From a virus: a stretch of 26,931 nt of DNA. Below, piece by piece: positions 1 through 20,927 of the stretch. How positions within the stretch are numbered: the first letter of the stretch is position 1; each line of letters starts with the position of its first letter. The notes under the pieces were generated by a model. It was not told the DNA's origin. It was given only the letters and a program-made list of their open reading frames with translations, and did no database searches. Both the position numbers and the translations under genes were made by a program. The DNA lies in IMG/VR virus record IMGVR_UViG_3300005856_000091. One strand, written 5' to 3'.

Positions 1-373
<373 letters not shown>

Positions 374-806: not shown

Positions 807-1187
807 TTAGTAGTAGGCTGCTGTTGGAACCAATGCGTTAACTATTGCGTCAGCTACATCGCTTGGGCATCCAAGTGCTACAAACCTGTTCTTAACTCCT
901 TGGGATGCTGTTACTAGTGTTGCTCCACTGTGGCTGAATAGCATCTTTGTGAGCACTTCTCCAAGAGCTATACAAACGCCGTAGATGCCTGATGGAAGCC
1001 CCTTGTCTGCTAGTATAGCCTTTACTCTATCTATGTTTGCTCTAACAGCCGCAACAGAACCTTGGTATCTTGGAACCATTATTGTGTCGTGTATGGCTGT
1101 TAGCACTGCCTTGACATTGTCTCCAGAGTACTTTGTTGTGTACTTAGTTATTTGTTCTGAAAGTGTGTATCCAGCCATGAAGCTCAT
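807..1187 (-). CDS. Major capsid protein 2 (SIRV2-like fold)
   Basis: Paralog of the adjacent MCP (DRVKAILADKGLPSGIYGVCIALGEVL...GVKNRFVALG..DVADAIV); GGGGTGAG RBS 5 nt upstream. Confidence 0.8.
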   Translation of the reverse strand: MSFMAGYTLSEQITKYTTKYSGDNVKAVLTAIHDTIMVPRYQGSVAAVRANIDRVKAILADKGLPSGIYGVCIALGEVLTKMLFSHSGATLVTASQGVKNRFVALGCPSDVADAIVNALVPTAAYY

Positions 1188-1200
1188 ATCATCTCACCCC

Positions 1201-1557
1201 CTAGCTAACAACAAGTGTTGCTAACTTGTCTAGAACTGCAGGGTCAGCACCTTTTGCAATATACTCGTTTTTAACGCCAGCGATAACAGCATCTGGCAAC
1301 CTACCCTTAGTGGCTTTTGCAATTCTTAGAAGAGCCTCTGCAAACGCTATGTGAATACCCCACTTACCCTGTGGAACTCCGAGATCTATCAAAACCTCTC
1401 TAACCCTCTCAACAAGCATTCTGAATGGTGTTGCATAGTTGATGTACTTTGTTACAGCTATTTGCTGTGAAGCTGCATACCTAGTAGCTACTCTATCTGG
1501 CGATGTCTTGGCACTGAACATCTGAGCCATGTCTCCAGCAGACTTAGTTATAGGCAT
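1201..1557 (-). CDS. Major capsid protein 1 (SIRV2-like fold)
   Basis: Aligns by eye along its length to the SIRV2 MCP as I recall it: SP..VA....A.....F..V..VL...G....I...F...R......I.G.K..YI...ADP.VLD; GGTGAA RBS. Confidence 0.87.
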   Translation of the reverse strand: MPITKSAGDMAQMFSAKTSPDRVATRYAASQQIAVTKYINYATPFRMLVERVREVLIDLGVPQGKWGIHIAFAEALLRIAKATKGRLPDAVIAGVKNEYIAKGADPAVLDKLATLVVS

Positions 1558-1677
1558 ACCCTATTTCACCCACAACTATTGATAAAAACATATAGAGATA
1601 TTAACTTGTGAGCAACAACATATATTTTGAACCATATGTAAAAACGATGGAAACCCACTTTATAGGTGACCACTAAT

Positions 1678-2205
1678 ATGTCTTCACATAAAGATTCAAG
1701 TCAACAACATGTTTCTGTTTCAACAAAGCAAGTAAAAGATGTTGGAGAACTCATAGGGTCGAGAAAAGTTCTTGAACTGATGAAGCAAGCTGTGAAAGAG
1801 AACATAGCGTCAACAGCATACATAGTTTCAAGGATGTACATATATTCGCTTATTCTGCACGCTCTTAAGTACTTCGATTTCAAGCTGTCCTACGCACCAA
1901 TGTATGGTGTTAACATAGATATTTTAAAGGAGATTGTACCATTTGAGGACAGTTTCGAGGTTCGCATAAGGGTTGATATCAGAAACATAGATGTTAAAAG
2001 GCTTAAGAGTAACTGGAGACGTGTTTCTGCATCTATTAAGAAGACTGATGATGACTCTGTGAAGCTCATTATGAAGATCGGTCAGCATATATTTGTTGAG
2101 ACGTGGAAAGAGTTTGAGATGGAGCACATGTATGGCAAGGTTGATGAGCTAAAAGAATTTAAGGTTGTTAAGGAAGAGCAAATTAATGAAGGTGAAAACA
2201 GTTGA
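1678..2205 (+). CDS. Hypothetical protein (175 aa), first gene of the rightward operon
   Basis: Long ORF divergent from the MCPs; GGTGA RBS favours ATG 1678 over GTG 1666. Confidence 0.8.
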   Translation: MSSHKDSSQQHVSVSTKQVKDVGELIGSRKVLELMKQAVKENIASTAYIVSRMYIYSLILHALKYFDFKLSYAPMYGVNIDILKEIVPFEDSFEVRIRVDIRNIDVKRLKSNWRRVSASIKKTDDDSVKLIMKIGQHIFVETWKEFEMEHMYGKVDELKEFKVVKEEQINEGENS

Positions 2206-2345
2206 GTGTTCAGATAACTATAACCCTTCCTAAGCCGCTTTATGAAAGGCTTCTTAGGAGGTGTAATGAGGCTGGCATGACTTTAGATACGTGCATTGCT
2301 AGGGCTGTTATACACCTAGTTGAGCAGGAGGTGAAAAAGAGTTGA
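2202..2345 (+). CDS. Ribbon-helix-helix (CopG-like) DNA-binding protein, 47 aa; absent from the ORF track
   Basis: MSVQITITLPKPLYERLLRRCNEAGMTLDTCIARAVIHLVEQEVKKS has the RHH pattern; GGTGA RBS; TTGA overlaps with both neighbours. Confidence 0.8.
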   Translation: MSVQITITLPKPLYERLLRRCNEAGMTLDTCIARAVIHLVEQEVKKS

Positions 2346-2698
2346 GTATTGAGAGCTTCATCCAACTGCTTTCTAAGTACCTTGACATGCCTAGCGTTCA
2401 AAGCATTATGATAGCTCTTAGGATGGGTCAGGAGAGGTACAGCTCTGGAAAGATAACTGAGAGGGATGTTGATTCTGGTGCTAGGAAGCTGTGCAGAATG
2501 ATTAGCGGGACTCTTGGAACCGATGTATCTAGGCTGGAGTCTGAGATTGGCTCAGCTTTCAGCGATTGGTGTGTAAACACTGTTAAGATGATTGTAATGG
2601 GTTCCCTAGCTGGTTTAACAGCGTCATCAGCGATAGACCTGTTCAAACCCTCTGATGAATCTGAGGGCGGGAGGTCTAGGGAGACAAGGCTCCTCTAG
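2342..2698 (+). CDS. Hypothetical protein (118 aa)
   Basis: GGAGGTGA RBS, TTG start coupled to the upstream stop. Confidence 0.8.
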   Translation: MSIESFIQLLSKYLDMPSVQSIMIALRMGQERYSSGKITERDVDSGARKLCRMISGTLGTDVSRLESEIGSAFSDWCVNTVKMIVMGSLAGLTASSAIDLFKPSDESEGGRSRETRLL

Positions 2699-2708
2699 GG
2701 ATCAGGGG

Positions 2709-3752
2709 TTGAAGCTCATAGCCGTATACACATCTCAGAGGGCAGTATCTCTGCAGAAGGTTTCTAAGACTATATGCGATGTCATGGCATCTGATGACAT
2801 CATATGCGATTTTCTAAACCCATCTATACTAGATAAGCAGACCCTTAATCAGTTCGATTCATCACTCACTGTCATGCCGTTCGACCTTGCCCCATGCTTC
2901 AACTATTTCTATAACTATTGGAGGTGGAGATATGAGTTAAAGAAGCCATCAATATTCTATACAACAATAGAGGGCGATGTGCTTAACCCAAACATGTATG
3001 AATGGATAAAGAGGGATCTTGACTTTGTAGCTAACAGCAGGTATACTGAGTCTAAGCTGAGGAAAGGAGGCTACAAGGTGAGGGAGCTTATATACCACGG
3101 CATAGACCTCAACCTATACGACCCAAGCAAGTATGATGATGACGCTAAGAAGATTAGGGAGAGGCTTGGATTTTCACAGAACGACTTTGTTTTTCTATAC
3201 ATAGCATCTTCACATCCTAGGAAGTGCCATGACAAGGCTTCGAATGTTATGAGGATACTTGAGAAGAGGGATACATCAATAAAGCTAGTTGTTCTAACAG
3301 ATGAAAAAGCTGCTAGCTATTACCAAGGCATTGGCAACACAGTTGTTTTGACGGATTTTGGAAGCATTGACGAATCATCTATCCCAGCACTGTACAGAGC
3401 TGTTGATGCCTATGCACAGTTCTCATGCATAGAGGGGTTCGGCATGCCTGTTCTTGAGGCTCTTGCAATGGGTAAGCTAGTTGTTCATGTCAACTACATG
3501 CCTTTGACTGAGATCACAACACCTGATACAAGTGTTAGGGTTAAACCTGTTAAGAGGAAGCTTGTTGAGGGAGGTGGTTCAGCAATACTATACGAGCTGT
3601 ACGACTATGATTCATCTGATTTTGCAGAGGCAATGATAAAGGCTAAGCAACTTGTTCAGTCAGATCCATCTATTGTGGATAAGGCTAGGAAGAGGGCTCA
3701 GGAGTTCGATGCCCAAAAACTTTATAAGGGGTTTACCAAGTACTTTGTGTGA
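2709..3752 (+). CDS. GT-B (GT4-like) glycosyltransferase
   Basis: IYHGID, HPRKCHD, LYRAVDAYAQFSCIEGFGMPVLEALAMG motifs; TTG start at 2709 (MKLIAVYTSQ) avoids the long overlap of the 2655 start. Confidence 0.92.
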   Translation: MKLIAVYTSQRAVSLQKVSKTICDVMASDDIICDFLNPSILDKQTLNQFDSSLTVMPFDLAPCFNYFYNYWRWRYELKKPSIFYTTIEGDVLNPNMYEWIKRDLDFVANSRYTESKLRKGGYKVRELIYHGIDLNLYDPSKYDDDAKKIRERLGFSQNDFVFLYIASSHPRKCHDKASNVMRILEKRDTSIKLVVLTDEKAASYYQGIGNTVVLTDFGSIDESSIPALYRAVDAYAQFSCIEGFGMPVLEALAMGKLVVHVNYMPLTEITTPDTSVRVKPVKRKLVEGGGSAILYELYDYDSSDFAEAMIKAKQLVQSDPSIVDKARKRAQEFDAQKLYKGFTKYFV

Positions 3753-4078: not shown

Positions 4079-4084
4079 TTATCT

Positions 4085-4140
4085 GATTAAATAAAAATAG
4101 TTTTTTAATCTTTAAACACTTCTCTAAATAGCTGAGGAGT
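4085..4140 (+). promoter_or_regulatory. Terminator/promoter junction upstream of the structural operon
   Basis: AAATAAAAATAGTTTTTTAATCTTTAAAC followed by GAGGAG RBS. Confidence 0.5.
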
Positions 4141-4144
4141 AGCT

Positions 4145-4411
4145 ATGTCATCAAATATTTTGTTGCCTCCAGTTATTATGGATGTTGATGGTTGTACTGT
4201 CTATATATGGAACGTGATTATAGCTACGAATGTTTTTGGTAAGAAGAGATACTTGGTTACTGCACAGGCAAAATGCTACGGTAAGCTATCTAAGCAGGCG
4301 TGCTTCGATGTATCTGATGAGGATGACCTTAGAAACGTTTTAAAGAAAGAGGTAGCCCTGTTCAAGTCAATAGTTTTGTCAGGTGCTCACGATGTCTATG
4401 CAGAGGGGTGA
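4145..4411 (+). CDS. Hypothetical protein (88 aa)
   Basis: GAGGAG RBS; overlaps the start of the giant ORF. Confidence 0.8.
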   Translation: MSSNILLPPVIMDVDGCTVYIWNVIIATNVFGKKRYLVTAQAKCYGKLSKQACFDVSDEDDLRNVLKKEVALFKSIVLSGAHDVYAEG

Positions 4412-7400
4412 AGAGGGAGAGTTTAGAATAGATGAGCTGTACATAGCTGCTGCAAAGGAGTTGATAGAATCTGTAGCAAGCAGCATTACATTGATTCATA
4501 GCTCAGGAGTTTATCAAATATCTTTTGATTCTATAAAACTTGAAGCACTTGCAAACGCCCTTAATGTATTTGGATGGACGGATCCAATTGGAGAGATTAA
4601 GAATTGGTTCTACGACAGGTTGAAAGAGATTGCTACGTTCTTCAGCAGCACTGTTGATGCAATAACGAAGCCCATAAAAGATGTTGTTAACAGTGTTTGG
4701 AGCTTTGTACAGGGAATACCAAATGCGGTTGTTAGCGGCGTCAAAGTTTTTATAGATACGCTTTCTAGCAGTGTTTCAAGCCTTGCTTCATCTGTGTCGA
4801 GCTATTTCACTCATGTTCTAAGCAAGCTCTCAGACATAGCATCATCAATATCGGCATCAATTTCATCAGCAGTTTCAAGCATTCTGCAGGGAGTTTTATC
4901 TGCTCTGTCAAGCGTTTCATCAACTATTTCAAGCGTTTTTCTAAGGCTGTGGGACTCGATACAGGTTATAGGTTCAAGCATATCTGATGCTTTTGGAAGG
5001 CTGTCAAGCATCTTATCATCTATACCGTCTGCAATTATTCAGGGTGTTCAATCACTGTTTGCACAGCTGTCATCATCTCTCCAAGGCATTGGTCAGAGCA
5101 TACTTGGGGCGTTACAGAGCTTTGCATCATCTATTCAGGGTGCTATACAGGGGGTAGTATCATCGCTATCCTATTTTGCTAGCCAGATATGGAATGGTAT
5201 ACAGAGCATTGGAATCTCTTTGGCTGGTGTTGCTGATAGGATTTGGAGCGGTCTGCAATCAGTTGGTCAAAGCGTTTTGGGTGCTTTGCAGAGCTTTGCT
5301 GGGATGGTGCAGAGTGCTATAAGTAGTGTTGCTGGTACTCTATCTGGTCTCATTTCAAGGGTTTGGGAAGGTCTTCAGTCAATAGGTTCAGCGGTATCGG
5401 GGTTCTTCAGCAGGGTGTGGGAAGGTATACAGAGCTTTGGCAAGATGGTTTCAGATTTCTTTGGAAGGATATGGGATGGTATCCAGAGCGGGTTGAAGTG
5501 GGTATGGGATCAGCTACAGGTATTCGGTAAATGGCTGTGGGACAGCATTCAGGGGGGTCTAAAATGGCTTTGGGACGCTCTAACATCTATTGGTTCAAAG
5601 ATTTGGGAGGGTCTTCAATGGTTTGGCAAATCTGTTTCTGACATGTTTATCAGGGTTTGGGACGGTCTTCAGGCAGTTGGTAAATTGGTTTTGAGCGGGG
5701 TAGAGGGTCTTGGAACAGCTATTCAAAACGCTTTATCAGCTATTCAGAGATTTATTGAATATGAGTTTAGCATTGTTGGTGGTGCTCTCTCAAGCTTTGG
5801 AAGGCTTGTTGTAGATGGCTTTACAAGGATTGGTCAATCTCTCTCTGACTTCGCCAAGATCTTCGACAAGTGGGCAACTACACTATATGGAGGTGTGCAG
5901 GCGATTGGAAGCGGATTCACACAGTTTCTACAGTATATCTCTAATCTGCCGAATGTGCTTCAGAGCATATTTGGAGGCATAGCTGACTTCTTTAAGAGGG
6001 TTGGTGAAGTGATAGCGGAGTTCGTTAGAAGCCCGCTTGAGTTTATAAAGAAGCACATTATTGAGCCTATTTGGGGAGGAATACAGTGGCTAGCTGGAAA
6101 GATGTGGGATGGGCTTCAGTGGATGTGGCAGAAAATAGTTGAGGGTGCTCAATGGCTTTGGGGTGCTCTTCAGCAAGCAGGTCAATGGATGCTTAACGCA
6201 ATTGCAGGAATAGCCAGTGCTATTCAAAACGCTTTTACTGGAATTGCTAATACTATATCTGGTGTTGGTAAAACTGCATATGAGTTTATTATAAACATGT
6301 TTATGAAGATTAAAGAATTGGTTTCTGAATCTATGCAAAAATATGTTAAAGGAGTTATATCAGAGTTTATGAGTGCTGTTGGCTGGGGTTCACCCCCTGG
6401 TTTAACTTCTGATAACTTTGTAAAGGCTTGGGGAACATCGCTTTTCTGGTCACTGCCTCTATATGCATTTGCATTAGCTGTCGAGATACCGATTAGGGGG
6501 GCTGCGTATGGGCTTCAGCAGTTGGGCAATAAATTAAGTGGTATGGATTGGAAGATTAGACTGTCTTTGAAGTTTCTTGGGGCTGGAGGAGACATAGAAT
6601 TCAACTTGGCTAAGGCTCTTGGCGATTCTCTTCAGAACTTTGGCAAAGAGATGATGAAGCATGCTGAAAAGTTCTATGAGCCGTTCTGGATGGGCATAGG
6701 TTTCTGGTTCGGCAGATATGCATCGACGCTTCTAATATATAATCTCAGGAACTTCATACCAATTGAGATGCCATCGTTTAGAGAGGCTGAGGAGCTGTGG
6801 AACAGGATAAGGTCAACTGCTCTAACATCTTTCAAGATTCCTGAGGACGTGGTTGGGAAGCCTGAGGACGCTGAGGATGTTATTATAAACTTCCTAAAGA
6901 TGAGGGGCTACAGTGACTATGTTATCAAGCTTGCGTTTGCAGATGAGAATGAGTTCTATCTGGAGATTGAGGACAGGTTTGGCGTTAAGAGGAAGATACC
7001 ACTGGCTGATGCGTGGAGAGTTCCGCCTCCAAGCGACATAATAACAATGATGATCAGAGATGTGATAATTGATCCTAAGTACTTTGCAGCAGTTATGAGG
7101 ATGCAGGGATTCAACAAGGACACATCTATACTGTACTACTACCTTCACTTCAGGTACCCGCCTCCTGAGAGGCTTGCTGAGTTCTATTGGCGTGGAATGG
7201 CAAGGGTTCTGTGGTTTGACAGGACATTGGAGGAGGAAGGTCTAAAGACATTCCTAGGGCTTGAAGCTATCAAAGCAACACCTCCTAGAAAGATAAATGA
7301 GAATCCAAACATATTGAATAACATGATTATGATGTACATGAAGTGGCACGACTATGCACCTTTCGCATGGCAACCAGGGTTCCCAACAGATAAGTCAATC

Positions 7401-10148
7401 ATGGTTGAGCTAATGGCTGACCTGCCAGACAAAGTTGATTTTCGATGGCTTACAAGGTACGGCATTATTGAGCACATGTCCTCCCTCGGAGTTAAGATGG
7501 ATACAACAATTGATGGTATTGTGTCTGCTATTCAGGGTGCTAAGGGTGATGAGCTTACCAAAAAGCAGGTGACGCCAGAGATTTCTCTAGATGTGTCTCT
7601 GCTTTCAAGGTTCCTCATAGCTAGGGGTATGCACCCGTATCTAGCTTCAATTGTTTCTGTTGCTGAATCCCATGTTATGCTAGCAGATGAGATGACTCTT
7701 CTCAGATCAGGGTTCCTATACCTGTACAGATGGGGAATGGCTAATGTTGACCAGCTTGAGCAGTTGATGAGCGGTCTATTCGTTATTAAGTTCACGACGG
7801 GATACATAGACACCGATGGAACTCCACACACATATACATATAACAAGCCTGTGTTCTGGCTACCTGCTGAGAGGAGGCTTCTGCAGTTGAGGGCAGCTAT
7901 GGATAGGTATTATGAGCTGTTCAGGGACTTTGTTAGGGAGGTTGAGAGGGGTGTTAGATCTCTAGCATTGCACACAAAGTCAACTGCTGAAGAGGTTAAG
8001 AAGTATGTTTCTCAACTTAATCTAGATAAGGAGACAAGCGAAGCTGTTAACAAGGCTCTTTCAAGCATTTCACAGGGGTTTGCAGAGGACTTGATAAAGA
8101 GATATGGAGGGGTGGTAACTGGGAGGCTTAGCGATGACATAGCTAAGATATCTGGGGTTAAGGTGTCTTTCACAGTTGATGATGTTTACATAGATTCTTG
8201 GATTAAGTCTGCAGAGCTTACTAGAACTATTGAGAGCAGGACTTGGATAAGGCACTACGCCACTAGGCTTGTTGCATGGATCCTATACAGAACTTCATAT
8301 GGTTGGACACCTGTTGAGAAGTTCAGCAACTTGACAGCGATTCTTCTTGCAAGGGGCTGGATAACTATTGAGGAGAAAGAGTTCCTTGATACAATAGCTA
8401 GCTGGGTCTATGGAATTGTTAGGAGGGAGATGATACCAACACCACTACAGCTAGCAACATTCTCAGAATACATGAAGGTATCGGATGACTTAATTGAAAA
8501 GGTTCTTGAAGAGCACAGGGTTCCTGATGATTATAGACAGCTATACAAGCAGTACATATCGTACAGGTTCATAAAAACTGATTTCAAGACATATATAAAC
8601 AGGGCTAGGAGAGCATATGTGCTTGGCATAATCAGTGATGCTGATTGGGGCAGTATTCTGAAGGAAGCTGTTGAGAAGTATGGCTTCAGAAATGAGGAGG
8701 TATCAATTATGCAGAGAATTGCAGATCTTGAGGAGCAGATGGAGAGCGTAAGGGTTTGGAGACCATCGCTAACAACAATCGCTACAATATCAGAAGTTGT
8801 ACCAATACCAGATGACGTAATGAACAAGATCTTTGCAAAGTTCAGGATAGACCCATTGATAGCCCCGTACGTAACTGAGTATGTTAAGAGGAGACCTCTG
8901 GTAGATGAGCTTAGGAGCCTTGTTAACGAGTACTACAGGATGAAGTACTACTCGGCTGTGTACAAGCAGACAATACCTCAAGACATTGAGCAGGCTGTCC
9001 AGAAATACATGCAGCTGTTTGGATTGACAGAGGAGGAGAGGGCTATCAGAGACCTTGTTGCAAAGATTAGGGAGACTGTAGAGATGTGGAGAGAGTCTGC
9101 AAGGGAGTACATACCAACACCATCTATGCTGGCAACAATTGCTGAGTATGTACCGTCACTAACAGATGAGATGATCAACAAAGTGCTGGAGGCTAGGAGG
9201 GTTCCACAGGAGTGGAGAGCTATATGGATGCAGTACATAAAGGCTAGGACTCTTGCTGATGAGGTTAGGACGCTTATAAACGCTTTCTATCGTATGAAGA
9301 GATATGCTATGCTATATGGATATGCTGTTCCTAAGGATGTTGAGAATACTGTGATTAAGTACGCTAAAATGATTGGCGTAACAGATGAGGAGAAGAGTAT
9401 AAGGGACTTGATTGCTGAGATCGAGGCTACTGTTGATAACTGGAGAGATCTTGCTAGAAGGGGAGAGAGCATACCAACTCTATCGCAGCTTGTTGTAATG
9501 GCTGAGTACATTAATGTACCTGTTGACTATGTTAAGAAGGTTCTTGAGGCTAGGAGGGTTGAGCATACATACGCAAATCTATGGCTTCAGTACCTCTATG
9601 CAAGGTCTATTTCTACAGAGGTTAACAGGGTTGTTAGAGCGTTTGAGGATCTATACATAAGGTTTGCTGTCCCAGAAGATGTTGTTAAACAAGTAACTTC
9701 GCTGATGGCTCAGGGTGGGTGGACTGAGCAGGAGCTTAAGATATTTGGCTTCGAGCTAGACCTTAGAAGAGCATACAGAGTTCTAACAATGATGATGCCG
9801 AGCATAAGGCAGTTCATTACAGATGCACAGTACTTGTCTAACTACGAGAAGCTTTTCCAAGACCTTCTACAGACATATGCAATAGATGCTGAGAAATATA
9901 AGAAGCAAGTTGACTACTACAAGAGGTTGCTGAAGAATAGGAGGCTTTGGAGACACTTCTCATGGTACAGAACACAGCTAACATATGCATTGATGTACGG
10001 CTCTATGACAGAGGATGAAATTAAGAAAAAGCTACAGCAGTTCGTTAACCTAGGGCTGATAGATGAAGATGAATTGAACGTAATAATTGATGGTATAAAG
10101 ATTAGGGCTGCTGCTTACGCTGCTTACAGGGCTTTGAGATATAGGTGA
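4392..10148 (+). CDS. Very large minor virion protein (~1920 aa) with tape-measure-like amphipathic repeats and ~115-aa C-terminal repeats
   Basis: Uninterrupted ORF; 11/18-residue W-spaced repeats in the N-terminal third; repeated IPTxSxLATxxEY...KVLEARRV units; AGGTG RBS favours ATG 4392 (GTG 4383 also possible). Confidence 0.85.
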   Translation: MSMQRGEEGEFRIDELYIAAAKELIESVASSITLIHSSGVYQISFDSIKLEALANALNVFGWTDPIGEIKNWFYDRLKEIATFFSSTVDAITKPIKDVVNSVWSFVQGIPNAVVSGVKVFIDTLSSSVSSLASSVSSYFTHVLSKLSDIASSISASISSAVSSILQGVLSALSSVSSTISSVFLRLWDSIQVIGSSISDAFGRLSSILSSIPSAIIQGVQSLFAQLSSSLQGIGQSILGALQSFASSIQGAIQGVVSSLSYFASQIWNGIQSIGISLAGVADRIWSGLQSVGQSVLGALQSFAGMVQSAISSVAGTLSGLISRVWEGLQSIGSAVSGFFSRVWEGIQSFGKMVSDFFGRIWDGIQSGLKWVWDQLQVFGKWLWDSIQGGLKWLWDALTSIGSKIWEGLQWFGKSVSDMFIRVWDGLQAVGKLVLSGVEGLGTAIQNALSAIQRFIEYEFSIVGGALSSFGRLVVDGFTRIGQSLSDFAKIFDKWATTLYGGVQAIGSGFTQFLQYISNLPNVLQSIFGGIADFFKRVGEVIAEFVRSPLEFIKKHIIEPIWGGIQWLAGKMWDGLQWMWQKIVEGAQWLWGALQQAGQWMLNAIAGIASAIQNAFTGIANTISGVGKTAYEFIINMFMKIKELVSESMQKYVKGVISEFMSAVGWGSPPGLTSDNFVKAWGTSLFWSLPLYAFALAVEIPIRGAAYGLQQLGNKLSGMDWKIRLSLKFLGAGGDIEFNLAKALGDSLQNFGKEMMKHAEKFYEPFWMGIGFWFGRYASTLLIYNLRNFIPIEMPSFREAEELWNRIRSTALTSFKIPEDVVGKPEDAEDVIINFLKMRGYSDYVIKLAFADENEFYLEIEDRFGVKRKIPLADAWRVPPPSDIITMMIRDVIIDPKYFAAVMRMQGFNKDTSILYYYLHFRYPPPERLAEFYWRGMARVLWFDRTLEEEGLKTFLGLEAIKATPPRKINENPNILNNMIMMYMKWHDYAPFAWQPGFPTDKSIMVELMADLPDKVDFRWLTRYGIIEHMSSLGVKMDTTIDGIVSAIQGAKGDELTKKQVTPEISLDVSLLSRFLIARGMHPYLASIVSVAESHVMLADEMTLLRSGFLYLYRWGMANVDQLEQLMSGLFVIKFTTGYIDTDGTPHTYTYNKPVFWLPAERRLLQLRAAMDRYYELFRDFVREVERGVRSLALHTKSTAEEVKKYVSQLNLDKETSEAVNKALSSISQGFAEDLIKRYGGVVTGRLSDDIAKISGVKVSFTVDDVYIDSWIKSAELTRTIESRTWIRHYATRLVAWILYRTSYGWTPVEKFSNLTAILLARGWITIEEKEFLDTIASWVYGIVRREMIPTPLQLATFSEYMKVSDDLIEKVLEEHRVPDDYRQLYKQYISYRFIKTDFKTYINRARRAYVLGIISDADWGSILKEAVEKYGFRNEEVSIMQRIADLEEQMESVRVWRPSLTTIATISEVVPIPDDVMNKIFAKFRIDPLIAPYVTEYVKRRPLVDELRSLVNEYYRMKYYSAVYKQTIPQDIEQAVQKYMQLFGLTEEERAIRDLVAKIRETVEMWRESAREYIPTPSMLATIAEYVPSLTDEMINKVLEARRVPQEWRAIWMQYIKARTLADEVRTLINAFYRMKRYAMLYGYAVPKDVENTVIKYAKMIGVTDEEKSIRDLIAEIEATVDNWRDLARRGESIPTLSQLVVMAEYINVPVDYVKKVLEARRVEHTYANLWLQYLYARSISTEVNRVVRAFEDLYIRFAVPEDVVKQVTSLMAQGGWTEQELKIFGFELDLRRAYRVLTMMMPSIRQFITDAQYLSNYEKLFQDLLQTYAIDAEKYKKQVDYYKRLLKNRRLWRHFSWYRTQLTYALMYGSMTEDEIKKKLQQFVNLGLIDEDELNVIIDGIKIRAAAYAAYRALRYR

Positions 10149-10205: not shown

Positions 10206-10394
10206 ATGTCCTCAACACATGTCAAGGATCAGAAGACTCAAACACCTCAGTTGCCTGACACTAGCGAGTTGCTTAAGAAGATGGACAGGGATTTGGAGGA
10301 GATGAGGAAGAGGTTTGAGCAGTTGATTAAGAAGATGGATGAGGATCTTGAGAGGATTAGAAAGCAGTCTGGTGGTTCAAGTGCAAAGCCTTAG
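10206..10394 (+). CDS. Small coiled-coil protein with an 18-aa tandem repeat
   Basis: ELLKKMDRDLEEMRKRF / EQLIKKMDEDLERIRKQ; AGGTGA RBS. Confidence 0.75.
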   Translation: MSSTHVKDQKTQTPQLPDTSELLKKMDRDLEEMRKRFEQLIKKMDEDLERIRKQSGGSSAKP

Positions 10395-11676
10395 CGATGT
10401 CGTTAGAAAGATTATTGAAGAGAAACAGAGGTATGCACAGAAAGTTGCGACTGAGGATGCTCTTCAGCAAAACGTTTTCGACATATATCTTTTTTCTGAT
10501 CAGATAGGCTTCCAGTTTGATCAGGTTATCCTAGACTCTATATTCACCTCATTAGTTGGCATCGCATTTTATGGTTTAAACCCTTCTGAGATACCCATCT
10601 TCAACCTGTGCTTCGATACAAGCCTTCCGTCTTCTGATGAATACGTTAGAGGTAAGATAATAAACGTTCAGAACATATCCTGCTTAGATAAGTACCCAGA
10701 GATCTCAACATATATCAATGAAGCTGTAAATGCTTTGAAGCCTAGCATGATACAGAAGTGTTACTGGGGCGTGTCAACATATGGAGATTGCTATGTTGAT
10801 CCATCTGTCGTTAGAGATTATTTGAGGTCAACAATGCTTAGAGTGTTCAAGATTCCTAGGGCTGAAGAAACTCAGAAGAAAATACACGACTCTTTCATTG
10901 CAAATCTAGATATGTTGCCTGACCCGATGAAGGCTGGATGGGAGATGAGCAACTACAGTTTTGAGGCAAAGATTAGGGATCCCTACTGGGACTATGCATG
11001 GTGGGATCTGAGTTTTTGGGCGGAGGAGGAATCATACATAGTTAACTATGAGAAAAACCCTGTTCCTGCTAACCCAGAGCATGCAATGGATGTTATGGTG
11101 GTGGCGTTCTGGGATCTTGGCATATGGGACTATAGCTTCTGGGCTGAGGAGACCCACAGCACTCCTGAAGGCATTGAAATGCTTGAAAAATTCGGCGATC
11201 TATATGATTCTGTTATGGCGATAGCTGACAAGATATCGTTCGAGGCTAAGTCAAGGTTGCTTACAACACCTCTAATTGTTGCTAATTACCAGACAGTTGA
11301 AGAGAGGAAGAACTGGTCAATTAGTAAGAGAGTTGATGAATTTGGATATTCAAAGGTATGGATATACACTATAAGAAATATTGTGAGGAGCATTGTTGGC
11401 GGTGTTCCCCCAGGTGTTTTCAGGGTGTATGAATCCGCTGCTATGAGCCTTGTGTCAAGAGTTGGTAGACAAGGTGGGTGGGGCTACGAAGCATTCAGGT
11501 CTATGGATATGGATACGTTCAGGAAGCAATGGATTGATGAGTGGAGCAACAAGGGGCTGGATCCAGACCTTCTCAGAAATATATTTGATGCAGTTATTAG
11601 AGAGGTTAAAACGTTTTCTGGCGAAAGATTTAAACAAAAGGTTCTGCGGCAAACTTTATATGGTGGTTTATTCTGA
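10381..11676 (+). CDS. Minor structural protein with W-D aromatic repeats and a C-terminal MCP-like domain
   Basis: YWDYAWWDLSFWAEE / FWDLGIWDYSFWAEE repeat; C-terminus aligns with MCP1; GGTGG RBS favours GTG 10381. Confidence 0.75.
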   Translation: MQSLSDVVRKIIEEKQRYAQKVATEDALQQNVFDIYLFSDQIGFQFDQVILDSIFTSLVGIAFYGLNPSEIPIFNLCFDTSLPSSDEYVRGKIINVQNISCLDKYPEISTYINEAVNALKPSMIQKCYWGVSTYGDCYVDPSVVRDYLRSTMLRVFKIPRAEETQKKIHDSFIANLDMLPDPMKAGWEMSNYSFEAKIRDPYWDYAWWDLSFWAEEESYIVNYEKNPVPANPEHAMDVMVVAFWDLGIWDYSFWAEETHSTPEGIEMLEKFGDLYDSVMAIADKISFEAKSRLLTTPLIVANYQTVEERKNWSISKRVDEFGYSKVWIYTIRNIVRSIVGGVPPGVFRVYESAAMSLVSRVGRQGGWGYEAFRSMDMDTFRKQWIDEWSNKGLDPDLLRNIFDAVIREVKTFSGERFKQKVLRQTLYGGLF

Positions 11677-11691
11677 ATAGAGGTGAGGGGA

Positions 11692-11949
11692 ATGCTGGAC
11701 ATGTGGTACGACCCTCCAACAAGAAACCCCAAAAAACCATTGGTGTGGATACTGTTCGACAGCTTTGTGATAGGGTTGTTGGCTTTTGCAGCTAGCCTGC
11801 CATACGATAGGATACCTACTCATCTAGACGTCTACATAGCTTTGAGGGCTTTCATATATTCGTTTGCTATGCAGCTCTTTGTTGAGTACGGGGTTAAGCC
11901 CTATTGGAGGAATAGGAAGAATAACGGTTGGGATGAGGGTGGTGAATAG
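11692..11949 (+). CDS. Small two-TM membrane protein (envelope or holin-like)
   Basis: Two hydrophobic segments and a charged C-tail; GAGGTGA RBS favours ATG 11692. Confidence 0.75.
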   Translation: MLDMWYDPPTRNPKKPLVWILFDSFVIGLLAFAASLPYDRIPTHLDVYIALRAFIYSFAMQLFVEYGVKPYWRNRKNNGWDEGGE

Positions 11950-12371: not shown

Positions 12372-12866
12372 ATGAAGCTAAACCTTTGCTGTGGAGATGA
12401 TGTTAGGGAAGGGTATATAAACATCGATGTTAGAAAAACTAAGCATAATGTTTTGGTTCTTGACCTTGAGAAGGAACTGTTAAAGCCTTTCCCAAGCAAC
12501 TCAGCTGAAGAGGTAATAGCGAAGGATTGCATAGAGCATATTTCTTGGAGGAGGGTAGAGGACTTGTTAAGGGATATTCACAGAGTTCTAAAATGTAACG
12601 GAAGAGTCTATATACAAGTCCCAGACCTAGAGGCAATAACTAAGAAAGTTATTTTTAATCCTGACTTCTGTTTTGATATCTTGTGCGGGTGGAAGGCAAT
12701 ATCATACTTTGTATATGGGGGACAAGACTACGAATATAATTATCACAAATCAGGTTTTACAATTGGAACACTAAGAAGGTTGCTTGAGTCCATAGGATTT
12801 GTTGTTGATGATATTATGAATGATGGAGGCAGTAACATCATTACATATGCTAGGAAGAGGTGCTGA
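12372..12866 (+). CDS. Class I SAM-dependent methyltransferase
   Basis: KLNLCCG motif I, YINID, EEVIAKDCIEH, LKCNGRVYIQVPD. Confidence 0.9.
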   Translation: MKLNLCCGDDVREGYINIDVRKTKHNVLVLDLEKELLKPFPSNSAEEVIAKDCIEHISWRRVEDLLRDIHRVLKCNGRVYIQVPDLEAITKKVIFNPDFCFDILCGWKAISYFVYGGQDYEYNYHKSGFTIGTLRRLLESIGFVVDDIMNDGGSNIITYARKRC

Positions 12867-12871
12867 GTTTT

Positions 12872-14017
12872 ATGAACCCCATCCTCTATACATACCCATT
12901 GAACCACATTGTTAGCTTCACGATTGTGGGGAGGAAACATGTGGAGTACTTGAGGAGGCTTAGCATTGCAAAGGTTTATGAGATGGATGAGCTTGTCTTC
13001 CCAAATTTTGTTCCGTCAATAAGGTATGACGCTGTTATACACCCATTTCTGTTCATATGGGAGAGAGTTATAAGCAAAATAGGTAAGGCAACACCTCCAC
13101 AATTAAAGCACAAGGTTAGCAAGTATGTTGATGACTTCAAGAACCAATATGACCAAGTTGTAGCAGTTGATGTTTGCGACAGTGATAGGATAAGCGATTA
13201 CGCTGTGAACTTTCTGAACTATGCCGACAAAATTATTGTGCCAAGCAATTTCTGTGTAGAGGTATATAGGAGTAGCGGGGTCAAAAAACCTGTTTACAGG
13301 GTTCCTCATGGGGTAGATGCAGAGTGGTATACCACTAAAAACATTTGGGGTACAGAGCTTAGGGAGAAAGTAGGTGATTTGGTGAAAGCTGTTTATGAGT
13401 ATAAGGTTAAGAAGAATAAGAAGATTTTGCTTTTCTGGTTGTGGCACAGCCCCGAGAGGAAGGGGTTTGACGAGGTTCTCAAGGTTTACACAAGGCTAAT
13501 GAAAGAGCGAAACGATATTGTACTGGTTATGAAGGTTGCAACACTCCAATCATTCCTAGTTGCTCATTTGTCTCCCAACTACCCGTCTAAGCCTGAGGAT
13601 CTGGACATAAACTTTGTTGTTGGATGGCTAAGCGAATTCGATAAAATGGCTCTATACGACTTGGCGGACATAACATTGATGTTCAGTATTGGTGGAGGAT
13701 TCGAAATTAACACGTTAGAAAGCTTAGCGAGAGGAGTACCTGTAATAACATCTAATAAAGGGTCGTGGACTGACTATGTTCCACCATTTCTACAGGTTAA
13801 AGCTGGTGAAAGGGTGAAGGTTTTTGACAAGCACGATATTCATGTCGGCTACGGCTATAAGGTGGATGTTGAGGACGCCCTGAACAAGATTCATGATATC
13901 CTAGATAACTATGATGAGTACAAGGCGAGGACAGAGGAGTGGAGTAGTAAAGTATTGGCAAACGAGTATCGATGGGACATAATAGCACAAAAACTTGTTA
14001 AGGTTATACATTGTTGA
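12872..14017 (+). CDS. GT-B glycosyltransferase of the rudivirus/lipothrixvirus type
   Basis: N-terminal YxYPxxHxVSF motif, IIVPSNF, VPHGVD, ERKGFD, GGGFEINTLESLARGVPVI; GAGGTG RBS favours ATG 12872. Confidence 0.92.
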   Translation: MNPILYTYPLNHIVSFTIVGRKHVEYLRRLSIAKVYEMDELVFPNFVPSIRYDAVIHPFLFIWERVISKIGKATPPQLKHKVSKYVDDFKNQYDQVVAVDVCDSDRISDYAVNFLNYADKIIVPSNFCVEVYRSSGVKKPVYRVPHGVDAEWYTTKNIWGTELREKVGDLVKAVYEYKVKKNKKILLFWLWHSPERKGFDEVLKVYTRLMKERNDIVLVMKVATLQSFLVAHLSPNYPSKPEDLDINFVVGWLSEFDKMALYDLADITLMFSIGGGFEINTLESLARGVPVITSNKGSWTDYVPPFLQVKAGERVKVFDKHDIHVGYGYKVDVEDALNKIHDILDNYDEYKARTEEWSSKVLANEYRWDIIAQKLVKVIHC

Positions 14018-15759: not shown

Positions 15760-16290
15760 ATGAAAGACGTGGTTAAAGGTACGTCCATAACAAAGGTCTG
15801 GATGTTCAGAGACCCTGATGGAGCTATTGAGAGGCTTGGAAAGAGTGGTGTACCAGCGGATAAGATACGTGAGATGTTTCCTGACAGGCTTGTAGATGTT
15901 AAGGAGGTTAAAGGAAATGTGTTTCTGAACGAGGGTATCCAGTTCATTTGGCAAGCAGTAACAGGGCAAACAGGATTAACATACTTCGGCTCAAACAGTT
16001 GCTTAGGTGTTGGCGATGGTACAGCTGCTGAGGCTGCAACTCAAACTGGTCTTCAGGGAACTAACAAGTACTACAAGCAAGTTGACTCGGGGTATCCACA
16101 GATATCAGGGACATCGGTGGTATTCCAAGCAACATTTGGATCAACTGAGGCGAATTTTAATTGGTTTGAATGGACAGTGGCAAACGGTTGTGGAGATACC
16201 TATGTCAACCTTAATAGGAAGTATGCTGTGATGGGCACTAAGCAATCTGGTGCTACGTGGATTCTTCAGGTGACGCTAACGATTAGCTAG
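15760..16290 (+). CDS. Structural protein resembling the fibre-anchoring domain of tailed phages
   Basis: NVFLNEG...LGVGDGTAAEAATQTGLQG...EANFNWFEWTVAN...NRK...TK.SG.TW.LQVTLTIS pattern; AGGTGA RBS. Confidence 0.6.
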   Translation: MKDVVKGTSITKVWMFRDPDGAIERLGKSGVPADKIREMFPDRLVDVKEVKGNVFLNEGIQFIWQAVTGQTGLTYFGSNSCLGVGDGTAAEAATQTGLQGTNKYYKQVDSGYPQISGTSVVFQATFGSTEANFNWFEWTVANGCGDTYVNLNRKYAVMGTKQSGATWILQVTLTIS

Positions 16291-16465: not shown

Positions 16466-19123
16466 GTGTCGTTCACATCAGCATTACCAACAAAGATACC
16501 GCTATTCGCTGGAGCCATTAAACGTATTTACCAATCTGATTATGCAAAAGGTTCAGATACATTCAAAATAATAATTAAATGGAGTGATTCAGCTAGGGGT
16601 TCTGAATCATTCAAACTATCTTTGAGGATTAGTGATAGTGGTAAGGGTTCTGATGTATTCAAACTAATGGTTGTTGTTTCTGACATTGGCAGATCATCGG
16701 AGTTGTACAGGCTACAACTTCTCACTTTAGATGTTGGTAGGGGTGCAGATTCATATAAGCTGGCTTTAAAGGTTCTTGATTCTGGTAAAGGATTTGAGTA
16801 CTTTGGTTCGTTTATAAGGGTTGCTGATTCTGCTAAAGGAATCGAGTCTCTATTGATAAAGTTGCGTGGCTCTGATAGTGGTTATGGATCCGAATCATTT
16901 AGACAAGTACTTAGGTTTGCTGATTCTGCTAAAGCGACAGATGTTTTTAGGCTGTCATTGTTGTCAGTTGATTATGGGAGAGGTGTAGATACGTATGGTG
17001 TATTGCTTAGATATGCTGATATTGGGAAGGGTTATGAAGCTTATAGTACAGCTCTGAGGGTTTCTGATAGTGGTTCGGGTATTGATATTGCAAAGATATT
17101 GATTAAAGCTGTTGAATATGGGAGTGGTTTGGATGTACATGCTGTAAAACTGCTGGTGTCTGATTATGGGAGTTGTAAAGAGGTGTTAAAGCTTTCTCTG
17201 ATAGGTGTAGATGTTGCAAGTTCTGTTGAAAAGTTTGGCGTGGTTTCAAATATCTTGTTATATGATAGAGGGTATGGTATTGAGAGTCACTCAATTCTTG
17301 GATTGATTGGTGATCGTGATAGCGGTAAAGGCTATGAGGTGTGGACATCTGTTGGCAGGATACCTGTGAGCGATTCTGCAAAGCTGATTGATATTGGCAC
17401 TATTAAGCTTTCCGTGACCGATTCTGCAAAATATTTTGACTCATTGCGATCTAGGTCATTTTTGTTCTCAGACTATGCTATTGGATTTGAACTTAGCATA
17501 CCTGCTAGGAAACCGATTAGAACTGTTGATGAATGTCTAAGCATTTTGAGAGGTATTATTCCTGAGATCGACTATAATAAGGAGGTTAGGAGCTACCACA
17601 TTAACTATCCTTTTGAGTGTGCTAATCTAGCTGTTGACCTTCTTGGAAGGGCTATTCAGAGGGTTATTGAGAAGGGTTTGTACAGAAAGAGATGGGGCGA
17701 CGTAGTATCATTAAAGGATGTTATTGAGCTGTATCAAGAGGCTCAGAGGTTTGTAAATGCCTATAGAATCCTCAAGTCGATGGACATACTTACACCTGAC
17801 CATGAGAACTTCCTCATAGAGATAATATACAATGTTTGGCAAGCTATTCAGAAGCTGAGCTGGGTAATAACGCAAACAGTTGGTATATCTGCTGAGGATT
17901 GGCTAAGTATCAGGGCTTGGTTAAAGCCTGAGGTTATGTACAGGGTATCACAAATTGATGTTGGTAGGGGGATTGAGAGGTACATAGCGTTTGTTAGAGG
18001 GGTTCTTGTTGCATCTTCATCAATTAGCCTTGAGGATGTTGCTAAGATAATCAGATCTGTGTCATTCGCAGTATCAGAGTCATTACAATTATCAGGCTAT
18101 TCATCTATATATACAATCTTTTCAGGGTATGACATTAGCAGAGGTTCGGATTCATATAGAGTGTCTATTTTTGTGCCTATCAAGCCAAGCTCATCAATTA
18201 GCCTTGAGGATGTTTCCCAAGTTATTCGCATTGTAAGCATAGTTGCATCTGATTCGTTACAGTTGATAGCATCAGCATCACCAACATTTATCTACTCGAT
18301 TAGGGTGCTTGACTCTGGATCTGGTAAGGAGTCATATAGTTTAAGTATCAAGGTCAATGTAATTGGCTTGAGCAACATATCAATGGCTGACAGCATTAGC
18401 TCAACAATTTCACGTGTTCTATCGCTTGCTGAAAGAATCTACATGAATTCAAGTGCACTAGTATCAGTTACTACGTCTATTTTGGGTGGAGATAGTGGTA
18501 GCGGCAAAGATTCGCATAGTATAAGCATTAGAGTTCCTATATCATCTGCTGTCTCAATTAGCTTGGCTGATAGCATAGGGATAACAGTATCACATGCTGT
18601 ATCAGTATATGACAGCATAATCATAACATCGAGTGCATCAGCATCTGTAAAAGCTGGTGCATCATCATCAGATAGCGGTAGAGGATATGATGTGCATAGT
18701 GTAATAGCTAGAACTGTAAGCTATGACACATCAAAAGGTGTTGATGTCTATACAATTACCGCAAAGGTTGTTCCGATTGATAGTGGTAGAGGATCGGAGA
18801 CATATGGCATCACAAGGATTATACCTGTTTCAGCATCTAGCAACATTGGATTGACTGATTCAATAAGCATAACTATAAAGCGTGTCATATCGTTATCAGA
18901 TAGCCTGAGCATAAGCTCAACACCGTCTCTAGTTGTTAAGGTTACAAAGACATCATCTGATAGCAGCAGGGGATCAGAGTCTTATGGTGTAACTAAGAGA
19001 GAGGGTGTAGCAGCATCAAGCACAATAAGCCTTGGTGACTCTGTGAGTGTGAAAGCAAAGCACAACATATCATTATCAGACAGCATTAGCATAAGCTCAG
19101 CAGCATCTGTTAATATAGCTTAA
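16466..19123 (+). CDS. Repeat-rich fibre-like protein (885 aa)
   Basis: About 20 N-terminal 16-aa SDxGxGx(D/E) repeats, central helical domain, C-terminal alternating SSISLxDS and DSGxGxESY repeats. Confidence 0.8.
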   Translation: MSFTSALPTKIPLFAGAIKRIYQSDYAKGSDTFKIIIKWSDSARGSESFKLSLRISDSGKGSDVFKLMVVVSDIGRSSELYRLQLLTLDVGRGADSYKLALKVLDSGKGFEYFGSFIRVADSAKGIESLLIKLRGSDSGYGSESFRQVLRFADSAKATDVFRLSLLSVDYGRGVDTYGVLLRYADIGKGYEAYSTALRVSDSGSGIDIAKILIKAVEYGSGLDVHAVKLLVSDYGSCKEVLKLSLIGVDVASSVEKFGVVSNILLYDRGYGIESHSILGLIGDRDSGKGYEVWTSVGRIPVSDSAKLIDIGTIKLSVTDSAKYFDSLRSRSFLFSDYAIGFELSIPARKPIRTVDECLSILRGIIPEIDYNKEVRSYHINYPFECANLAVDLLGRAIQRVIEKGLYRKRWGDVVSLKDVIELYQEAQRFVNAYRILKSMDILTPDHENFLIEIIYNVWQAIQKLSWVITQTVGISAEDWLSIRAWLKPEVMYRVSQIDVGRGIERYIAFVRGVLVASSSISLEDVAKIIRSVSFAVSESLQLSGYSSIYTIFSGYDISRGSDSYRVSIFVPIKPSSSISLEDVSQVIRIVSIVASDSLQLIASASPTFIYSIRVLDSGSGKESYSLSIKVNVIGLSNISMADSISSTISRVLSLAERIYMNSSALVSVTTSILGGDSGSGKDSHSISIRVPISSAVSISLADSIGITVSHAVSVYDSIIITSSASASVKAGASSSDSGRGYDVHSVIARTVSYDTSKGVDVYTITAKVVPIDSGRGSETYGITRIIPVSASSNIGLTDSISITIKRVISLSDSLSISSTPSLVVKVTKTSSDSSRGSESYGVTKREGVAASSTISLGDSVSVKAKHNISLSDSISISSAASVNIA
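18017..18214 (+). repeat. 24-nt exact direct repeat inside the fibre gene
   Basis: TCATCAATTAGCCTTGAGGATGTT at 18017-18040 and 18191-18214. Confidence 0.85.
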
Positions 19124-19159: not shown

Positions 19160-19810
19160 ATGATCTGGATAAGAAAGTTACTCAAATTGATTTTGCAACA
19201 AGGCTTAACTGTCACGTTTACAGAGGATGAAGCTAGAAAGATAATTGACACAAGGCAGAGGCTTAGACAGTGGTACAACCTAGCATCACAAGGTGTTTTA
19301 GCTGAAACAATTGGTGTTGGACTCAAAGATGCTATCATGGACATTGCAGATGTTGCTAACAAGCTTTATGGGTGGTATGTCCCTCAATTCCAAGTAAGCA
19401 AAATTGCTTTAACTGATGCCGAATTAGAATCTGTCATCAATGATCTGAAGGCGAAGGGTGGTTTGGTTGCTTGGTTTCCGCTTGATAGTCAATACATCTC
19501 TACAAGTCTTGATGAGTTCAAGAAGATTATCTCATGGGACTGGACAGATCATCTACACTACGAAATAAACACATTTGATTGTGAAAACTTTGCATTCTAC
19601 TTTGCATCAAGGGTTGCAAGGATGTTTGGTATTAACACTGTTGGTATTGTGCTTGACTATAGCTCTGCTCATTCATATAACCTTGTCATTGTCAAGGATT
19701 CTCAGGGTGTTAGGTGGATGCTGTACGAGCCTCAACTAGATAGCTTGTTTACCTATGATCAGAGGGATCAAAGCTTTTATGCTATGAAACAGTATGTACT
19801 TCTGTTGTAG
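19160..19810 (+). CDS. Papain/transglutaminase-like cysteine protease domain protein
   Basis: FDCENFA, HSYN and YEPQLD motifs give a Cys-His-Glu triad like the agglutinin C-terminal protease domain; AGGTGGGG RBS. Confidence 0.7.
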   Translation: MIWIRKLLKLILQQGLTVTFTEDEARKIIDTRQRLRQWYNLASQGVLAETIGVGLKDAIMDIADVANKLYGWYVPQFQVSKIALTDAELESVINDLKAKGGLVAWFPLDSQYISTSLDEFKKIISWDWTDHLHYEINTFDCENFAFYFASRVARMFGINTVGIVLDYSSAHSYNLVIVKDSQGVRWMLYEPQLDSLFTYDQRDQSFYAMKQYVLLL

Positions 19811-19819
19811 GGTAAAAAC

Positions 19820-20611: not shown

Positions 20612-20917
20612 CTAGCCATTTAAATCAATACATATTTTTATCATTTCAAATAAAACATATATTGCTAGAATGACAAAGATAGCTGACGCCAGCAACTCAA
20701 CAACTGCTATAAGTAAGTGCTGTGTCGATTCATAGATATTTCTTAATGCTATAGACGTGCAGTTAACTATTTCTATCCCTCCGCAAAACGGTTTAAACCC
20801 TTTCTGAAGCTCTAAAGATTCTCTCATATGGTTAAATGAATCAACTGCGAAGTATATTGACAGAGCTACTAGAACAGCAAATACTGTTAGAACGGGTATC
20901 AATAGCTTGAGTTGCAT
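20612..20917 (-). CDS. Two-TM membrane protein
   Basis: Hydrophobic segments at both ends; AGGTGTGGTG RBS favours ATG 20917. Confidence 0.7.
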   Translation of the reverse strand: MQLKLLIPVLTVFAVLVALSIYFAVDSFNHMRESLELQKGFKPFCGGIEIVNCTSIALRNIYESTQHLLIAVVELLASAIFVILAIYVLFEMIKICIDLNG

Positions 20918-20927
20918 TACACCACAC

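Follow-up and report, generated by a model that had tools for sequence, protein, structure and literature searches.

Two paralogous SIRV2-fold capsid proteins in a distinct, probably family-level adnavirus lineage with a predicted Desulfurococcales host

In this study, we analyzed a DNA stretch of 26,931 nts (hereafter the window), a partial metagenomic virus contig (IMG/VR record IMGVR_UViG_3300005856_000091) that occurs in both JGI and ENA assemblies, and found two adjacent paralogous genes, MCP1 and MCP2, whose products match adnaviral capsid proteins in profile and structure comparisons. The account we prefer, and regard as a whole as fairly probable, is that both proteins are major capsid proteins (MCPs) of a filamentous dsDNA virus of the realm Adnaviria, and that one MCP1 and one MCP2 would most likely form a heterodimeric capsomer coating the linear genome in the A-form. 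A rudivirus-like capsid gene would have been duplicated to give the pair, independently of that in Lipothrixviridae/Ungulaviridae, and the pair would define a distinct and probably family-level lineage of hot springs and marine hydrothermal sediments, of which this member would infect an Ignisphaera-like host of the order Desulfurococcales. Within this account, we show the paralogy and fold of the two proteins, their tandem conservation under purifying selection, the clade placement and the CRISPR targeting, and infer the formation of the heterodimer, the A-form of the DNA and the shape of the virion. What is new here is a distinct, probably family-level lineage with a conserved capsid gene pair and a specific host prediction.

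Layout, paralogy and fold of the capsid gene pair

The two genes and their flanking elements are arranged in the window as follows:

807-1187, minus strand: MCP2, 126 aa, paralogous SIRV2-fold capsid protein by profile and AF2/Foldseek matches, second gene of the pair
1188-1200, minus strand: intercistronic spacer of 13 nts with a GGGGTGA Shine-Dalgarno motif, read directly from the sequence
1201-1557, minus strand: MCP1, 118 aa, SIRV2-fold major capsid protein by Pfam, profile and AF2/Foldseek matches, first gene of the pair
1558-1665, no strand assigned: AT-rich divergent intergenic region of 108 nts between MCP1 (minus strand) and the plus-strand structural block, putative promoter

The 13-nt spacer with its Shine-Dalgarno motif, an oligo-T run 3' of the MCP2 stop codon (near 735-745) and the AT-rich region ahead of MCP1 suggest that the pair is one bicistronic unit, from which both genes would be transcribed together. 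A BLASTP comparison of MCP1 and MCP2 yielded 30% identity over 105 residues (E 2e-13), and their family profiles can be aligned from one end to the other (hhalign probability 99.7%, E 4e-25) with a shared core, RV..L.D.G.P.G..G..IA..E.L ... GVKN. This similarity is far above chance. A preliminary description of the sequence had reported adjacent, co-oriented paralogs of 118 and 126 aa with a common GVKN core, which proved correct in all particulars.

On its own, MCP1 matches the Pfam family PF12193 (Sulf_coat_C, 27.9 bits against a cut-off of 25.2) as well as AFV1 ORF132 and the PDB chains of SSRV1 and SIRV2; its best tblastn match in classified viruses covers 36 aa of AFV1 (ORF132). MCP2 as a single sequence gave no match in Pfam and no tblastn match in classified viruses. 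A profile of 11 MCP1 homologues (A1) matched SSRV1 (6wq0, E 7e-8) and SIRV2 (3j9x, E 5e-7), in addition to AFV1 ORF132 and SFV1, and a profile of 10 MCP2 homologues (A2) matched SIRV2 (3j9x, E 3e-9), SSRV1 (E 3e-7) and AFV1 ORF140 (E 1e-3). Three PDB entries (3j9x, 6wq0 and 5w7g) were matched by the profiles of both MCPs. The AF2 model of MCP1 (pLDDT 82.5) has a pair of long helices at the N-terminus and, after them, a bundle of three helices, and its first eight Foldseek matches in PDB are all adnaviral capsid proteins (TM ~0.6, probability 1.00). The model of MCP2 is weaker (pLDDT 66), with SIRV2 as its top Foldseek match. Both proteins are full length, and their N-terminal helices are present in the models.

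By these profile and model comparisons, MCP1 and MCP2 are identified as SIRV2-fold adnaviral capsid proteins, the alpha-helical MCP type of Adnaviria being recognized by Pfam, profiles and Foldseek. The fold proposed earlier for both proteins is supported by the profile matches to SIRV2, SSRV1 and AFV1 chains and by the adnaviral top matches in Foldseek; structures without the SIRV2 helical bundle, the outcome that would have spoken against it, were not seen, and the AF2 models match adnaviral capsid proteins. In each protein, the long N-terminal helices would wrap the DNA, with a helical bundle at the C-terminus.

Proposed composition of the capsomer

In 16 of 16 lineage loci examined, which span a GC content of 37 to 67%, the two types of gene occur in tandem on one strand, the MCP2-type gene directly after the MCP1-type gene at a distance of about 15-80 nts. 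Nei-Gojobori dN/dS values between the window and two relatives were 0.16-0.25 for MCP1 and 0.07-0.18 for MCP2; both genes are under purifying selection and neither is decaying, MCP2 being the more constrained. Because the tandem is conserved and both genes are under purifying selection, a heterodimeric capsomer is favored over a dead paralog. According to the ICTV profile, such capsomers occur in all non-rudiviral adnaviruses. As far as genes alone can tell, the two conserved MCP genes of the window argue against the single homodimeric MCP that is typical of Rudiviridae.

A different reading, which we consider unlikely though deserving of attention, is that one of the two proteins alone builds a rudivirus-style homodimer capsid and that the other is an accessory or non-structural paralog like that of Hoswirudivirus. 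The best matches of both profiles are homodimeric rudiviral capsid proteins, and the closest solved relatives, SIRV2 and SSRV1, are homodimers; moreover, the MCP2 model reaches a pLDDT of just 66. In Hoswirudivirus (SSRV1, MRV1 and ARV3), a paralog, the MCP and then a glycosyltransferase (GT) follow one another in one orientation, with one small gene before the GT in SSRV1. The SSRV1 paralog, called a 'putative coat protein', has 108 aa and immediately precedes the MCP and GT of that virus. There is a weak match (E 2e-3) between an MCP2-type representative and the MRV1 paralog. This adjacent second coat paralog is reported to be absent from virions (PMC10848311, citing Wang et al. 2020). The window copies differ from it in several respects: both are full length and conserved, whereas the SSRV1 paralog is shorter and very divergent (branch length 2.16). 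An accessory role also fits poorly with the retention of the tandem in all 16 loci despite very different GC contents, and with strong purifying selection on both genes, in which MCP2 is the more conserved. The bicistronic layout with its strong Shine-Dalgarno motif would fit equimolar expression of two subunits. On balance, we prefer the heterodimeric capsomer.

Place of the lineage among adnaviruses

An exhaustive profile search of 1.84 billion representatives recovered 108 relatives at E <= 1e-3; apart from members of the window's own subclade, all are at most 45% identical to MCP1. We built a careful maximum-likelihood tree of 61 sequences including named references (support given as UFboot/SH-aLRT). 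The window MCP1 lies inside a 17-row clade with support of 97/97. Rudiviral MCPs (SIRV2, SSRV1 and SIRV3) and metagenomic relatives with a single MCP make up another, distinct clade (97/95), so the window's MCP1 does not group with rudiviral MCPs. The AFV1 and SIFV pairs do not belong to the clade that unites rudiviral MCPs with the window's pair, a placement that implies separate duplications. MCP2-type sequences form a comb rather than one clade, which counts against settling the timing of the duplication. The fold family named in the preliminary description thus stands as adnaviral, but both profiles and tree place the proteins closer to rudiviral MCPs than to the lipothrixviral/ungulaviral heterodimer pair.

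According to sample descriptions, the lineage loci come from New Zealand terrestrial hot springs and from Guaymas and Pescadero hydrothermal sediments. Four representative proteins could be traced only to contigs of about 1 kb. Among the representatives, several with lengths of 235-280 aa, including P0053 (258 aa), P0052 and P0132, contain one or two full capsid-protein stretches; these fused or extended forms resemble the 'fusion' capsid genes of a 2025 preprint (bioRxiv 10.1101/2025.08.23.671958). A central MCP2-type representative (P0040) has 26% identity (E 2e-3) to positions 4080-4340 of the MRV1 genome (MN876843.1), where it matches the second 'putative coat protein' and not the main MCP of MRV1. 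The hoswirudiviral paralog and the MCP2 type may be of common origin.

At the genome level, megablast of 25 kb, with 50,697 records of phages and archaeal viruses as the database, returned nothing but a 47-nt IS end, which is 98% identical to the ISDka2 end in HAV2. When the 37 window proteins were compared by tblastn with SIRV2, SIFV and partial SSRV1 and AFV1 sequences, few matches were obtained, and only three of the 37 (two glycosyltransferases and the giant fibre protein) match SIRV2 at the BLAST level, with 21-30% identity. No classified virus is close by megablast, tblastn or tree, in agreement with the earlier impression that the MCPs are only distantly like those of Sulfolobales viruses; high genome-wide identity to a classified rudivirus or lipothrixvirus was not found among the 50,697 records. 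The lack of a nucleotide match, the three matching proteins and the Desulfurococcales spacers described below also separate the window from Rudiviridae with their genome-wide relatedness and Sulfolobales hosts. With Lipothrixviridae/Ungulaviridae it shares no orthologous MCP1/MCP2 pair, the only direct match being the 36 aa of AFV1 ORF132.

The other genes that bear on the comparison are:

1-373, plus strand: 3' part of TnpB (IS200/605) and right end of the IS (Pfam Cas12f1-like_TNB, E 1.5e-20)
2655-3752, plus strand: GT1, predicted capsid-linked glycosyltransferase, SIRV2 ORF335-like (Pfam Glycos_transf_1, E 9e-14)
4383-10148, plus strand: giant structural protein, 1921 aa, probably a terminal fibre (weak SIRV2 ORF1070 match)
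10339-11676, plus strand: putative minor structural protein, 445 aa (conserved in L002, L006, C142 and IMG/VR relatives)
12372-12866, plus strand: SAM-dependent methyltransferase, 164 aa (Pfam Methyltransf_11, E 2e-6)
12860-14017, plus strand: GT2, glycosyltransferase, SIRV2 ORF356-like (Pfam Glycos_transf_1)

In tblastn, GT1, which adjoins the MCP pair in all relatives, aligns with the SIRV2 ORF335 region over 341 aa (25% identity). The C-terminal repeats of the giant protein weakly match the SIRV2 ORF1070 region (21% identity, E 9e-6), and its counterparts in relatives (1217-2208 aa) are kept downstream of GT1. The MCP1 profile weakly aligns with the C-terminus of the 445-aa protein (hhalign, E 0.007), GVPxG and KG.DP..L motifs being aligned, and this C-terminus is possibly capsid-like. 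Methyltransferase copies are 70-76% identical in related viral contigs of 52% and 67% GC. For GT2, the best classified matches are all in Rudiviridae (30-34% identity over the full length, E ~1e-44), followed by betalipothrixviruses; identity to SIRV2 ORF356 is 30% in tblastn. Synteny with relatives extends over the five listed genes from GT1 to GT2.

The likeness to Rudiviridae comprises the capsid fold, with rudiviral proteins (SIRV2, SSRV1; 3j9x, 6wq0) as the best profile matches for both MCPs, an ORF335-like GT adjacent to the MCPs, an ORF356-like GT, a P1070-like giant protein and a SAM methyltransferase, to which close relatives of the window add Hjc, a Cas4-like nuclease and an RHH regulator. 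The gene set, earlier called unusual, is instead largely rudivirus-like, though very distant. Differences from Rudiviridae include low MCP identity, a separate clade, two conserved MCPs in place of a single one, an Ignisphaera-like Desulfurococcales host instead of Sulfolobales and a giant protein nearly twice as long. With Ungulaviridae/Lipothrixviridae, the window shares two adjacent paralogous MCPs (AFV1 ORF132 and ORF140, SIFV0035 and 0036), and the AFV1 pair, like that of the window, is on the minus strand and divergent from a glycosyltransferase. Heterodimeric capsomers are proven in those families; their MCPs lie outside the clade of window and rudiviral MCPs.

Some calls for individual genes were revised. 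The ATPase once called RadA-like (21658-22425) shows similarity to ABC ATPases, restricted to their N-terminal P-loop part, and is ABC-type by these domain matches. A papain-like call was based on a Pfam Lectin_C_term match barely over threshold. The strongest family match of any non-enzymatic window gene is that of a 176-aa protein (15760-16290) to PHROG 23653 (unknown function, E 1.9e-41). As to a lipid envelope like that of Lipothrixviridae/Ungulaviridae, a crude count gave only four of the 37 proteins with a strongly hydrophobic segment, predicted as a membrane helix (11683-11949, 20612-20941, 20928-21356 and 25079-25270). The 88-aa ORF among these, with one N-terminal hydrophobic segment, is, by size and topology, a candidate pyramid egress protein like SIRV2 P98.

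Since the left end of the contig falls inside the TnpB gene, the genome is incomplete, which explains why terminal inverted repeats and a replication module are unseen in the window. Close relatives extend to 33 kb (JGI Ga0450854_000039) and 42.7 kb (Logan SRR12226570_3296), and the longer ones carry an additional replication and recombination block with a primase large-subunit-like protein, Hjc, a PD-(D/E)XK/Cas4-like nuclease, and RHH and HTH regulators. The TnpB element differs in site and orientation between the window and an 85%-related contig, L001 (L001:12723-13883). In the window it directly follows a 111-aa gene and is oriented against the MCPs; its position in L001 is four genes further along, in the orientation of the MCPs. 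It therefore seems that the IS inserted independently in sibling viruses.

Gene order varies within the lineage. The window has the MCP pair, GT, two small genes, the giant gene, a small gene and the minor structural protein gene. In the window subclade (window, L001 and L005), the MCP pair runs opposite to the glycosyltransferase block, with extra genes for proteins of 179 and 118 aa between them (window 807-3752). In L002 (7097-8960), L006 (2405-4267) and C142, the genes for MCP1, MCP2 and GT are co-oriented and contiguous. The last of these, C142 (JAPWTS010000004.1; L055-L057 of G287), is a contig of 52.9 kb and 67% GC binned with a Thermofilales MAG, and its region from about 19300 to 37500 has the same structural module as the window. 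Compared with the window, its methyltransferase is 70% identical and a 122-aa protein, duplicated in C142, is 78% identical, while its MCPs are only 33-34% identical. The high identity of the methyltransferase and the 122-aa protein despite a GC gap of 25 points suggests recent exchange between distant members of the lineage. A 5.8-kb contig in another MAG of the same class (G558:C12, L097) has 75% nucleotide identity to window positions 19206-20397 and 69% to 17270-18283, which cover fibre, lectin-like and 263-aa genes; it is probably part of a closer relative or a shared fibre module.

Metagenomic adnaviral lineages are numerous and include Ahmunviridae (PBV300) and Chiyouviridae (both ratified), Baiyanviruses and other Asgard-associated rods, Samediviridae and a pPolB-encoding group. 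In addition, Demeterviridae and Gaiaviridae have been proposed for Caldarchaeales-associated rod-shaped viruses (10.1101/2025.08.23.671958). Demeterviridae, Gaiaviridae, Ahmunviridae PBV300, Chiyouviridae and Baiyanviruses resemble the window as metagenomic, geothermal, rudivirus-like adnaviruses with an MCP beside a GT, an MCP-like minor structural protein, a giant protein and phage-tail-like proteins; their hosts differ throughout from that of the window. Chiyouviridae have non-adjacent MCP genes and a Bathyarchaeia host (PMC10848311), so that by description they are set apart from the window with its adjacent MCPs and Desulfurococcales host signal. Baiyanviruses have a single MCP.

The preprint bears directly on novelty, since the window could belong to one of its proposed families (Gaiaviridae, or a broadly drawn Demeterviridae), in which case the lineage would not be new. 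Such membership, and that in Gaiaviridae in particular, appears to us improbable, with a chance too large to neglect. The preprint describes an adjacent SIRV2-like capsid pair beside a GT, of which only one copy is possibly functional, a giant host-recognition protein, phage-tail-like proteins and a methyltransferase, and the New Zealand pool metagenome that yielded the Gaiaviridae exemplar is also the source of the relative L006. Its gene table for the Demeterviridae exemplar labels genes of 162 and 193 aa in the fibre region as 'tail fiber' and 'phage tail protein'. By that table, the exemplar has one 125-aa MCP and a divergent 219-aa MCP-like gene in the order MCP-GT-MSP-small-giant, a capsid gene set and order unlike those of the window. 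A single-MCP relative in our set (L120; MCP-GT-MSP-small-small-giant) does match this table. Whereas spacers link Demeterviridae to Caldarchaeales, those that match the window come from a Desulfurococcales MAG. Pattern scans of IMG/VR with lineage proteins (MCP1, the minor structural protein, GT, and rudivirus-like and other MCP1-type MCPs) did not retrieve the Gaiaviridae exemplar (IMGVR_UViG_3300020567_000363), and scans with lineage proteins did not retrieve the Demeterviridae exemplar either. Neither the window nor the contig names of its relatives appear in the supplement parts covered, a point of little weight. Based on gene content and one capsid tree, we therefore consider the window to be probably a distinct, family-level adnavirus lineage. 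The earlier suggestion of an undescribed genus or family holds as regards the classified families and is weakened by the proposal of Demeterviridae and Gaiaviridae.

Predicted host and significance

When 351 genomes from a single Thermoproteota class were searched at the DNA level, two short stretches matching the window almost perfectly turned up on the same contig, JAPWUB010000016.1 ('MAG: Desulfurococcales archaeon isolate RSNS17'). This contig contains a CRISPR array of 67 repeats (repeat GAAACTCCCAAAAGGGAGTAGAAAG) beside RAMP-family genes, and five of its 66 spacers match the window, with 44/44, 43/44, 38/40, 36/37 and 31/33 aligned bases:

1926-1969, no strand assigned: protospacer 1, spacer sp5, 43/44, preceded by CCC
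7146-7189, no strand assigned: protospacer 2, spacer sp60, 44/44, preceded by CCT
13442-13481, no strand assigned: protospacer 3, spacer sp29, 38/40, preceded by CCT
21093-21125, no strand assigned: protospacer 4, spacer sp42, 31/33 aligned of a 45-nt spacer, preceded by CCA
26501-26537, no strand assigned: protospacer 5, spacer sp39, 36/37 aligned of a 41-nt spacer, no CCN in register

CCN, the usual PAM of crenarchaeal type I systems, immediately precedes four of these five protospacers. One RSNS17 spacer also matches two relatives of the window. An identical repeat is present in four Ignisphaera sp. MAGs, one Desulfurococcaceae MAG and one Thermoproteota MAG, and the non-array part of the spacer contig has a GC content of 40.8%, compared with 41.9% in the virus. 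A phylum-wide sample of 400 Thermoproteota genomes gave no convincing spacer; those described came from the class-level search. GTDB folds the Ignisphaera/Desulfurococcales group into Sulfolobales, so whether the host is called non-Sulfolobales depends on the taxonomy used. Under the NCBI taxonomy, which places Ignisphaera in Desulfurococcales, the non-Sulfolobales host first suspected is supported by five spacers from a Desulfurococcales MAG whose repeat is common to Ignisphaera MAGs.

Two other approaches to the host were set aside. The closest relatives of the TnpB are found in MAGs of Caldisphaera, Methanomethylicota, Desulfurococcaceae and Archaeoglobi, and are uninformative because they are only 59-80% identical and spread over several groups. 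Binning is unreliable, related contigs being found in Thermofilales as well as Desulfurococcales/Desulfurococcaceae MAGs. A more distant methyltransferase match lies in an Archaeoglobales MAG. The spacers also bear on a cellular origin of the pair, as chromosomal DNA-coating relatives of an adnaviral capsid protein, which is extremely improbable: five CRISPR spacers with PAMs target the contig, the genes lie inside a conserved block of rudivirus-like structural genes, no cellular housekeeping gene was found among the 37 window ORFs, and an MCP1-profile pattern scan of 185,579 species genomes gave no relative, the viral contigs in MAGs emerging later via DNA search.

The ICTV-listed hosts of adnaviruses are Sulfolobales, Thermoproteales, Bathyarchaeales and Syntropharchaeia, and the ICTV profile of Adnaviria lists no Desulfurococcales (Ignisphaera-like) host; the CRISPR link adds Desulfurococcales to these. 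The practical value is modest, one more metagenomic family where many are appearing. The predicted host also directs isolation attempts to a genus that can be cultivated. If true, this would be the first adnavirus linked to Ignisphaera-like Desulfurococcales.

The SIRV2-type capsid fold defines Adnaviria, in which the evolution of homodimeric versus heterodimeric capsomers is still debated. The capsid pair of this lineage clusters with rudiviral, not lipothrixviral, MCPs, and is in tandem wherever examined (16/16). We tentatively propose, as a possibility rather than an expectation, that this is a family-level, rudivirus-related lineage which has turned a separate capsid duplication into an obligate heterodimeric capsomer, perhaps in a non-enveloped, rigid virion. 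To our knowledge, a heterodimeric capsomer in such a virion has not yet been seen in Adnaviria, the known heterodimer viruses all being enveloped. The lineage may thus serve as a natural test of whether heterodimers have arisen more than once and whether a heterodimer always goes with an envelope.
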